A stretch of DNA of 59,285 nt, counting the filler, from Dugesia japonica (taxonomy: Eukaryota): NCBI GenBank assembly GCA_001938525.1. It is 5 parts of 5 records of this genome, joined end to end, with 100 filler letters (N's around TTAATTAATTAA, not from the genome) between each part and the next. Parts side by side here need not be neighbours in the genome. Positions count along the whole stretch, not along the records: positions 13,807 to 28,786 come from MQRL01640136.1; 4 more parts are not named here. One strand, written 5' to 3'. Position 1 is the stretch's first letter. Every line of letters starts with the position of its first letter. This document shows, one piece after another, positions 20,496 to 23,962 of the stretch. Below the pieces are notes generated by a model. The model had not been told where the DNA came from and did not search any database. It saw only the letters and a list, made by a program, of their open reading frames with translations. Made by a program: the position numbers and the translations under genes.

Positions 20496-22376
20496 CAAGC
20501 TATGATGATACTCGGGAAATCGCCAACACCAGTATTCGTATTAAGTCAGTTAAGCCATCGAGTTAAAGCATTGGGTACCGCGACAATCTATCCTATAATT
20601 CCACGAACACAAACACCGGTAACAGAAAACTGTTGTGCTCATTTCTCCCGAGTGACATGACCATTCTCACCAACTGTAATCGAGGCAAGTTGCCTTATAT
20701 GTATACGGAAAATGCAATCAATTTTGAAAACAGCATTGCGGGAAATCGCCGATCACAGACTGGTGTTGTTACAGCAAGACAAACTCAGTGGAAGACGTTG
20801 CCAGAAAATGCATGATAAACTGGAGGTTCAGGTGCCATTGACTGTCAACGAATTACACACTTTATGCGCACGTTGTGTTGGCATTTATAATGAAACCCTC
20901 ACTCGAGCTATTGAGAATTTCCATACGATATTAATAGTGTGGGACTGGTTAGTACTATGGTCTCAACCAGTTGACCCTCCACCATGGAGTGGTCTAGAAT
21001 CATTATTAAGAAAAAGAAATCTCAGCGAGGACGCCGAGTCTGAAGAAGATGGGGAAGGGGAACTAACGGAGAAAGATGGGAATTCGGAAGAGAAAGCGGA
21101 CATACAACCAAAAGAAGATGAAAGGATAGAAACAGAATTGCAAAAAATAACGCAATTATTGAAGGAGGGCGTATTAAAATATGCAGACAAACAAAGGAAA
21201 GAAAGGAAGCTGAAAGATAGCGGGGCATCACGTCAGAATTTTCATAATAAAATCAACAACGAAAACACGGATACGGGAAAGATGGCATTAGTCACCACCG
21301 AATCGAATAATTCGAATAAATTGGTTATGCCTTAAATAATTAAGACACCAAGTATTAGTCGTCCTTCTCAAACTCCAACAACATTATCTATGATTAACGA
21401 TAAATCAGCCATTATAGCACAAGAAGTTAAAACTGTATCTTTTGGTTTAGATAATCAAATGCGTTGACCACTGGCAATTGAAACTATGAATACCACTACA
21501 TGCTATACAATCACATGCCAGGGGAGTCAGACACCAAGATCCGAAGAAAGTTGCAATCACATTAACCATATAACTTGTCCGCTGTCAGCACTGCAATTGG
21601 AGGAGAGTTGTTTACAATGTATCCAACAAACACAGATAATATTAAAAAATGCACTAAAGGCCATTCACGATCAAAAAGCATAGCTATCCAAACCAGAAAA
21701 TTGGTTCAGGAAAGACTGTGATGGGTCACAAATTAAAATACCCATTCAAGCACCAATTCGTGACTCTGTTGTCAAAAAATTATGCATGCCATGCACAGAT
21801 ATTTATAGTCAAGAATTATTAGCGTCAATTCATGTATTTCACCATACATTAGTGCTATGGAACTCGATTAGAGTATATGAACCATCGGATATCCAATTGC
21901 CATGGGGCATGGTCGAACCAAATATTCAAAGTAAACACAAACTAAAAAATATGACGTCACTAGACATACGATCAGACGAATTGGCTTGTAGGAAATCGAA
22001 ACCAATCATTATCACGAATCCTCATGAAGGGTTACAAAAACAAGTGAAATTGATGAGAGAAGCATTTCAGGGTCAATGGGATGGAATGAAGGAAGAAGAG
22101 AGACAATCAGTCAGAATAACACCTGGAAGGGCAAAACAGATGAAAATGACATTGGTACAAGATGAGGTGGATCAAACAGAACCAAGAAAATCAAAAAACG
22201 AGTTACCCCAAGGAAGCAAGAATGAGATTACAGTGGAAATAATAGTCATAATAGCTCTGTTGTTATGGACAGTAATCAACACAAATTAGGACCATGGCAT
22301 ATTATTTTGGTTAATCATGAAACTAATCGGAAATATGGGAAAAGGGTGTCCAACATCGATTATGAAATATGGAACC
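20496..22376 (+). pseudogene. In-frame extension of integrase with two 111-aa Cys/His-rich repeats and terminal hydrophobic segments
   Basis: ORFs at 19362, 20370, 20712, 21486, 21786 and 22317 are all in one frame, separated only by stops. The repeats lie at 20613-20945 and 21531-21863. Confidence 0.8.
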
Positions 22377-23962
22377 ATGGGGATAATCTTATTTGGTTTG
22401 GCTCTGCCAACTCTGGCAATTCAACAAATACACACCATAAATCAGAATAGAATATCTAATGGACAAGTTATACTCACTATTTTAATAATAGGGATAAAGG
22501 AGATTAAATATCAAGATTGTTGGATCAACGAGTTAATATTAACGGAACATAGGGTTTATGTCGACGACCGCAAAACCACCATTTGAACCATGATCACAGA
22601 CGGGCGAAAGCGTGAAATAAAAGTTTTCGAAGGATACGGACACGAGTCAATATTGCTAAAACCTACTGTTATAATAATAAAATTGAATGTTATTATCCTG
22701 GTATGGGTGGACGGCAAGTTTATGGTATAAAGGAGACGCACCAGTTGAAGGTCAGGCAATGCATTTCAACATGAAGGATTGGTTGATGTATTCAGCACAA
22801 GAATTTCAAGGGAAACGTAAAAGAGATCATGGCGAATATGAGCACCAAATAAATTTTGAGATGCATCACGCACGTAACCTCCTAATTTACTACGTAATAG
22901 AAAACCCGCAACAAAGAAAATGGACATGGGAACGGAAGGGAGACGAGAGCGTGAAAATCTGCCTACAGAATGAATACCTATTCCATATTCAATTTTGGAA
23001 AAATATAGTTAAGGAATCAACGGATAAGAAACGGGTGTTTAGGGAACAAAAAAGTATAGCCATTAATCGGGGNNNNNNNNNNNNNNNNNNNNNNNNNNNN
23101 NNNNNNNNNNNNNNNNNNNNNNAAACGGGTGTTTAGGGAACAAAAAAGTATAGCCATTAATCGGGGAAAAGGATTCCACTCGATAACCGAATACACATTT
23201 GGAAAATGGGGTTCTCGTTGGCACGAAGGCCCAGGACCCGTGAGGATCAGAAAAATGAACAACACATATCAATTACGGATTAACGAGAAAAAGGAACAAT
23301 TAACGGCACAGAAATACTATTCACTCGCTATATGGGGATGAGCGTATAATGAAGAAATATCAGGATTCAAAGAAAATGCATTACAAGAACAAGGAGTGAA
23401 CATAGGTAGTTTTGGACCAGAAATGTGGGAAATGGAATTCACCACAGTTATAAATAAGGATATAAGAATAAAACTGAACATTACTAAACCAAAGGTTAAA
23501 ATAAGTATTACAACTACCACAGAGAAAACGACAATAACAACAGAAACTAAAAAACCAACTTCATCAGCCAACGAGGAAAAAGAAACAAAAAGAACAAACT
23601 TCTCAAACAATTTAATGAGAAACCTGAGGAATTACCAGCCAAAGGAAGATCACCTGATGATATGGGGTGGGCCTACTACAATAAAGAAACCAATCTTTAC
23701 CACCAAACCAACCAAAAATGGAACAGACCACATAATAATAATAGGGAGTGTATCAATAGCGGTACTGATATTAATCACACTATATGTACAATTCTGTAAG
23801 CAAACAAAACCCAAACGAAAGAAACACAGTCGGAATGGGAAAAGATGACATCTACCATTAGCCCCACCAAATTACGAAGGATTATCACTGGGGGCGATAT
23901 CGAACGGATTACCCACATATGTGCCTAGACTCTATCAGGCACCAGGGATAATGACTTGTTAA
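22377..23962 (+). pseudogene. Type I membrane glycoprotein at the env position of the giant element
   Basis: Signal-like MGIILFGLALPTLA, ectodomain, Thr-rich stalk, sequons NNT/NIT/NFS/NGT, TM IIIIGSVSIAVLILITLYVQF and a basic stop-transfer. Past a stop, the tail reads HLPLAPPNYEGL...LPTYVPRLY. Confidence 0.72.

Follow-up and report, generated by a model that had tools for sequence, protein, structure and literature searches.

A probable second glycoprotein with a double PY-motif tail behind the integrase of a decayed Ty3/gypsy element in Dugesia japonica

Gypsy elements that bear an envelope gene have so far been described with one envelope protein. In the planarian Burro elements the Env is encoded in frame between gag and pol, according to the available text of their description (PMC6431247), and the GAG-ENV-POL errantiviruses of Platyhelminthes, nematodes and bryozoans carry an Env of the HSV/gB type, according to the available text of PMC13524379, which mentions no second glycoprotein; in its main text the words "fibronectin" and "accessory" occur zero times. 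In the literature text that we searched, figures aside, no prior description was found of a glycoprotein other than Env fused behind the integrase. Two motif patterns from another field matter here, both as given in the available text of the sources: PPxYxxL is an extended Nedd4-binding motif (PMC2582799), and the combination of PPxY with LPxY marks Commissureless (Comm) and the PRRG proteins (PMC5578492). We analysed a stretch of 59,285 nucleotides of Dugesia japonica DNA (the window, five genome parts joined end to end) holding a gypsy element with a membrane protein of this kind at the end of its pol frame.

The window is AT-rich and contains an intronless-looking ankyrin/ion-channel gene and further gypsy fragments. 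A decayed element occupies about 14.2 to 24.7 kb of the + strand. Its reverse transcriptase (RT), RNase H and integrase follow one another as in Ty3/gypsy elements, and this order together with the gypsy type of the domains places it in Ty3/gypsy (Metaviridae). The upstream coding region (14234..17560, +; about 1,100 codons in pieces) matches no Pfam family above cut-off, nor was a gag zinc knuckle, a protease motif or an Env found there; neither a CCHC nor a protease motif is present in 13807-17600. Ubiquitin-like and BCL2-like readings of the upstream ORFs, made by eye, were not confirmed by checks. The RT and RNase H follow with one internal stop (17479..19167, +; RVT_1, E 2e-33; RT_RNaseH_2, E 3e-17), then the integrase with H2C2 zinc finger, core and C-terminal part (19284..20363, +; Integrase_H2C2, E 4e-17; rve, E 2e-12). 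Behind it the integrase frame continues for about 620 codons (20364..22226, +) that have no Pfam or true protein match and are absent from the relatives; four CxxC motifs (20691, 20865, 21609, 21783) and an acidic stretch lie in this insert, which possibly consists of zinc-binding accessory domains. The single match for 20661-22725 in 1.84 billion proteins (P0001) was rejected, since it is a repeat protein and its score adds up six weak stretches. Downstream of the membrane protein lies an accessory ORF, coiled-coil-like by eye (24014..24652, +); the stop inside it, at 24353, is peculiar to this copy. No paired LTRs were detected as a flanking direct repeat around the element, on either side of which lie N runs. 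With its many breaks, and without protease and Env, the copy in the window is dead.

Several other features share the window. Beyond an N run, a decayed ORF with an IAP-type RING finger at its end (26100-26903; zf-C3HC4_3, E 2e-10) and a coiled-coil-looking ORF of 239 aa (26961-27677) may belong, as accessory genes, to this element or to a Burro-like one. An open frame of 799 codons with ankyrin repeats and an ion-channel domain (3223-5619, -) and a DXD glycosyltransferase frame (55919-56698, +) are likely host genes. At 39545-41691 and 57273-59080 (-) lie two decayed fragments, 65% alike, from a different gypsy family.

The membrane protein begins with four hydrophobic stretches (22227..22496, +; stop at 22287): the first at 22227-22283 (Kyte-Doolittle 2.25 over 19 aa); a shorter second around 22296-22331 (2.22 across just 11 aa); the signal-peptide-like segment MGIILFGLALPTLA, beginning at 22377 and ending at 22418; and a fourth at 22464-22496 (2.7 over 11 aa). 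Since the fourth comes after the proposed signal peptide, there are four candidates for the signal role and none is singled out. The ectodomain (22419..23461, +), beta-rich by prediction, is spread in this copy over three frames with stops and an N run; it is poor in Cys (0-1 per piece), none of the six pieces scanned has a furin site (R-x-K/R-R), and the two downstream pieces have no internal hydrophobic segment. A stalk with 26% Thr+Ser (23462..23731, +) carries three N-glycosylation sequons (23477, 23597, 23717), with one more sequon at 23258, and leads into a transmembrane (TM) helix (23732..23797, +; core 23732-23788, Kyte-Doolittle 2.81). The helix is clear by hydropathy; the type I topology with a cleavable signal is predicted. 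A basic cluster opens the cytoplasmic tail (23798..23962, +), in which the stop at 23846 is followed by PPNY at 23864, YEGL at 23873 and LPTY at 23909, that is, by PPxYxxL (23864-23884) and LPxY (23909-23920). PPxY and LPxY come together in 0.3% of 200,000 shuffles of the 37-aa tail, and all three motifs in 0.14%; [PL]PxY occurs nowhere else in the other 3430 residues of the element. The anatomy given in a preliminary description of this DNA, from the hydrophobic segments to the tail motifs, is thus seen where it was placed.

A search with the integrase and its extension scored 7992 candidates. Among the 120 listed, a gap in score separates four (367-403 bits) from the others (318 or less), and all four match the integrase only. 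In an integrase tree of 38 sequences, which we picked from 122 proteins and 168 loci, the window forms one branch with P0002, P0003, P0004, P0005, P0035 and L092 (support 100/98), and scans of the three contig collections that supplied the 168 loci add only L091 and L092 to this clade, whose members are 45-55% identical in the integrase. In all five members with sequence past the integrase (P0035 ends inside it and is left out of the count), the integrase frame leads on to a signal-like segment and then to an ectodomain with repeats. Signal, ectodomain, Ser/Thr stalk, TM and tail are contained in one ORF in P0003 (with its cluster member P0122), P0004 and P0005; in P0002 the TM lies beyond one stop (L091), and in L092 the extension stays in frame until the contig ends. 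The signal-like segment of P0005 falls below the hydrophobicity threshold and was recognised by eye. Any hydrophobic segment after the integrase was seen in only 7 of 121 proteins screened, five of them these clade members. The first proposal, that the pol polyprotein ends in a type I membrane protein, is supported by these relatives, which carry the two in a single ORF. In the window about 620 codons intervene between the integrase end and the first hydrophobic stretch, against a gap of 38-50 codons in four relatives. None of the four relatives' tails has PY motifs. Outside the clade, the gypsy integrase protein P0010 ends in 341 aa with a signal, a helical-looking ectodomain and a TM, perhaps an independent case. 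L091, L092 and other loci are animal-type retrotransposon contigs within bacterial MAG records (P0002 is labelled Turicibacter), which is likely contamination.

The post-integrase ectodomain of the relatives is fibronectin-III-like (FN3). Eight repeats, taken by motif, are homologous between elements (leave-one-out scores of 16.6-39.5 bits, with 0 of 300 shuffles as high in five cases out of five). Residues 535-800 of P0005 resemble FN3 with an Atlas score of 0.95 and 182 shared features, and Pfam fn3 appears in two of four relatives, at best with E 0.002, which is below the cut-off. A low-confidence model of the repeats (pLDDT 43) gives weak Foldseek matches to FN3 and, in a wide structural search, a best Z of 6.6 to an Ig-like design.

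Of immediate interest for the role of this slot is P0122, a single ORF of 3735 aa with, in order, Ty3 capsid, CCHC, Monjiviricetes_fusion, protease, RT, RNase H, integrase and an FN3-like membrane protein. Its Env is of class III (PF24664, E 1e-91) and lies between gag and protease, an upstream position demonstrated in this one relative only; the tree includes no Burro sequence. At residue 1926 the tail of the class III Env has a PPxY, and two protease-like segments come after it. Because P0122 carries an Env upstream plus the FN3-like membrane protein, the post-integrase slot would be that of a second glycoprotein in the clade. That the protein of the window is the element's envelope, as was first considered, finds no support in this arrangement.

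That the element encoded a second, non-fusogenic glycoprotein behind its integrase is, as a structural core, likely. In the mechanism we propose, the hydrophobic stretches would thread the ectodomain into the ER, and host signal peptidase would cut free the glycoprotein, which forms the C-terminal part of the polyprotein. A type I protein would thus reach the surface, encoded by the one message that also yields Gag, Env and Pol. PPxYxxL and LPxY would bind WW domains of Nedd4-family ligases; these would send the glycoprotein to the endosomal or budding membrane, where particles would take it up to serve in attachment, with fusion left to the upstream Env. Herpesviruses and paramyxoviruses also divide cell entry between two glycoproteins. 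The full mechanism, an accessory glycoprotein with an attachment role, is plausible but falls somewhat short of probable. More tentatively still, there may be a lineage of animal LTR retrotransposons that splits entry between a fusogen of class III, placed before pol, and an attachment protein behind the integrase that can be exchanged, both in one giant polyprotein; in this subfamily the FN3 head would have been swapped for a fold without a match, and a conserved double PY tail would hijack Nedd4 ligases.

The tail can be followed in other copies of the element, represented by contigs from three runs aligned to the window. The stop at 23846 is not shared by them (non-stop depth 382.1 of 382.1, 959.9 of 968.9 and 387.2 of 402.8), and it is private also in a closer comparison of the TM and tail across four runs of three studies. 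The worry that this TGA is fixed in intact copies, leaving the tail never translated, is thereby removed: the tail is coding in the other copies. None of the 38 variant places listed (40 of 70 rows) falls in the 33 bases of PPNYEGL and LPTY, an invariance with P 0.0009 within the tail and 0.0015 from the TM to the end, and of the 37 differences that lie outside the stop codon, 19 are silent, where transitions would be expected to give a share of 0.33 (p 0.015); the P values are to be taken as guides, as the contigs come from related copies in three studies and are not independent events. The PY motifs look conserved across copies, as the preliminary description had supposed they might be, and the tail, with its cytoplasmic PPxY and LPxY, is a candidate Nedd4-binding tail.

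Such conservation would also suit a protein that never leaves the cell: a Commissureless-like Nedd4 adaptor from the same polyprotein, not on particles, whose ectodomain binds a host surface protein and whose tail drags it to lysosomes, blocking superinfection or dampening signalling. In the available text of the sources, GLPTY resembles the GLPSYDEAL of Comm and the PPxY-LPxY pair is the Comm/PRRG pattern (PMC5578492), the herpesvirus proteins UL56, UL42 and U24 are PY membrane adaptors (PMC5849660), and Burro elements hold other ubiquitin- and apoptosis-related domains (PMC6431247). The relatives, however, retain ectodomain, stalk and TM without PY motifs, which points to a shared function on the outside, and the ectodomain of Comm is short (PMC5578492, available text), whereas the long glycosylated stalk found here suits projection from the surface. 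We consider the adaptor rather unlikely, and prefer the attachment glycoprotein. The herpesvirus PY adaptors, too, have short ectodomains.

The membrane protein was first described as fused in frame to pol. In this copy the frame is broken. Stops interrupt the integrase frame at 20301, 20658, 21333, 21465, 21681, 22287 and 22584; the ectodomain shifts to another frame (22687-23070), passes a run of 50 N with a 44-nt duplication on its flanks, and resumes in a third, which is stopped at 23339 and 23846. Because of these frame changes, stops and N run, the true length and the Cys count of the ectodomain are uncertain. Despite its stops, the integrase frame stays coding for about 790 codons past the integrase. 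It has 5 stops in 760 codons, where the other two frames have 62 and 42, and is thus interrupted about as seldom as the RT-RNase H region (2 in 564). Those at 21333 and 21681, like the one at 23846, are not shared by the other copies in the three runs. The stops at 20301, 20658, 21465, 22287, 22584 and 23339 are absent from the variants listed (40 of 1097), and for that reason the continuity of the frame in this subfamily is something we infer.

It could then be asked whether the protein was a separate ORF, spliced or internally started, that shares the integrase frame by chance. ATGs do precede the signal-like segment, four of the six stops between the integrase core and the signal (20301, 20658, 21465, 22287) are not among the private ones listed, and summed contig depth drops about tenfold past 20660, as though most pol-like copies were without the 3' part. 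Against this, a single frame has been kept for 760 codons at a stop density that decay would explain, two of the six stops are private, and the relatives are fused in frame; we regard a separate ORF as improbable and the in-frame fusion as the better reading. In run X1 the summed contig depth is 5,000-24,000 over the integrase, 200-900 over the 3' coding region, 2,000-4,700 over 24216-24633 and 28,600 over 25052-25260, and the element (19200-25450) appears to be pieced together from parts of high and of low copy number. In one RNA run (a quarter of its reads) the mean depth over the 3' region is 0-0.5, which weighs neither for nor against expression.

The ectodomain of this copy has withstood all searches for a match. 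Two homologue searches yielded 953 candidates, none at E 0.01, and 16 candidates, none accepted; an Atlas search with ectodomain pieces gave no usable match, pattern searches gave 2 and 41 matches with none confirmed, and the best E against PDB sequences was 0.69. Nor could it be tied to the relatives' repeats: profile comparison with their alignment gave a probability of 0.1-0.2%, 277, 87 and 29 of 500 shuffles scored as high as the window pieces, and z reached 2.5 or more in none of 20 pairwise tests. A by-eye likeness of two short stretches to the last FN3 strand of the relatives failed against shuffles. The single-sequence model of one unbroken piece is mostly beta but poor (pLDDT 53), and fold searches with it found no match (best Z 4.0), the model being too poor to exclude any fold. 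It may be that an FN3 array has diverged far here and been disrupted by the frame changes, or that a different domain occupies the slot; with no detectable homology to the relatives and about 620 extra codons, the same position need not mean the same origin.

An ectodomain that matches no known family or fold, nor the FN3 repeats of the relatives, in a copy with no Env upstream could also be a new fusogen that has replaced the gB-type Env in this subfamily. On the pieces scanned (23123-23338 lay outside the scan) the post-integrase protein matches no Pfam Env family, and it does not match the Env of P0122. Residues 1-2348 of P0122, including Env and protease, have no tblastn match in the window; the match begins at residue 2349 (window 17524), just before the RT, and from there amounts to 46% identity in the RT region and 48% in the integrase. 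The homology starts abruptly, at about 17500-17524, at a frame change; the ORF ahead of it is the one that looks BCL2-like, by eye only. As the protease is missing too, a deletion of the Env-protease block is indicated rather than a replacement of Env, and loss by internal deletion would be the simplest reading of this copy. The few Cys, the lack of a furin site and of an internal hydrophobic segment in the two downstream pieces, and the FN3 protein that fills the slot beside a true Env in the relatives likewise speak against a fusogen, which the protein of the window probably is not; replacement of the Env is distinctly improbable. Of the original suggestion of a new envelope or attachment protein, the attachment or accessory half fits, and the new envelope survives as a minority reading for an ectodomain whose fold lacks a match. 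Very improbable, finally, is a captured piece of a host gene carried as a passenger without a role, as the want of an ectodomain homologue and the FN3-stalk-TM layout common in host receptors (general knowledge) might suggest, given that silent differences between copies are in excess, that the motif blocks do not vary among them, and that the slot is kept across relatives only 45-55% identical in the integrase.

If a second in-frame surface protein with a variable head does sit behind the integrase and is retained throughout a clade, such elements would possess a separate attachment or host-modulating protein. A separate attachment protein would bear on how they move between invertebrate cells, and the split between two glycoproteins would offer a testable model for the targeting of stem or germ cells. 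Annotators, for their part, should not take every membrane protein behind pol for an Env.

Among known systems, the Burro/GYPSM1 giant gypsy-like elements resemble this one, going by the available text of PMC6431247, in having one huge polyprotein with accessory domains. Their Env placement is matched by P0122, and RING and coiled-coil ORFs lie near the element in the window; that text, figures aside, has no post-integrase membrane protein, and the window copy, likened to Burro by description only, differs in being without gag knuckle, Env and protease. The GAG-ENV-POL errantiviruses share the gag-env-pol order of P0122, whose Env resembles by eye the Env of Smed_errantivirus_1/2 as far as the source shows it (PMC13524379). 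Commissureless/PRRG, the ENaC tail and UL56/UL42/U24 have in common with the window protein a single TM with PPxY and LPxY and the extended PPxYxxL; this likeness is at the level of motifs, and the window protein differs from these adaptors in its large ectodomain and polyprotein origin. Closest are the FN3 membrane proteins of the relatives (P0003/P0122, P0004, P0005, P0002/L091 and L092), which belong to the same clade and occupy the same slot with the same signal-ectodomain-stalk-TM-tail layout and few Cys. The protein of the window departs from them by some 620 extra codons, extra hydrophobic stretches, an ectodomain without detectable homology to theirs and the added PY motifs. The type of element is known; the novelty lies in an ectodomain that matches nothing, the long stretch inserted behind the integrase and the conserved tail with its two PY motifs.
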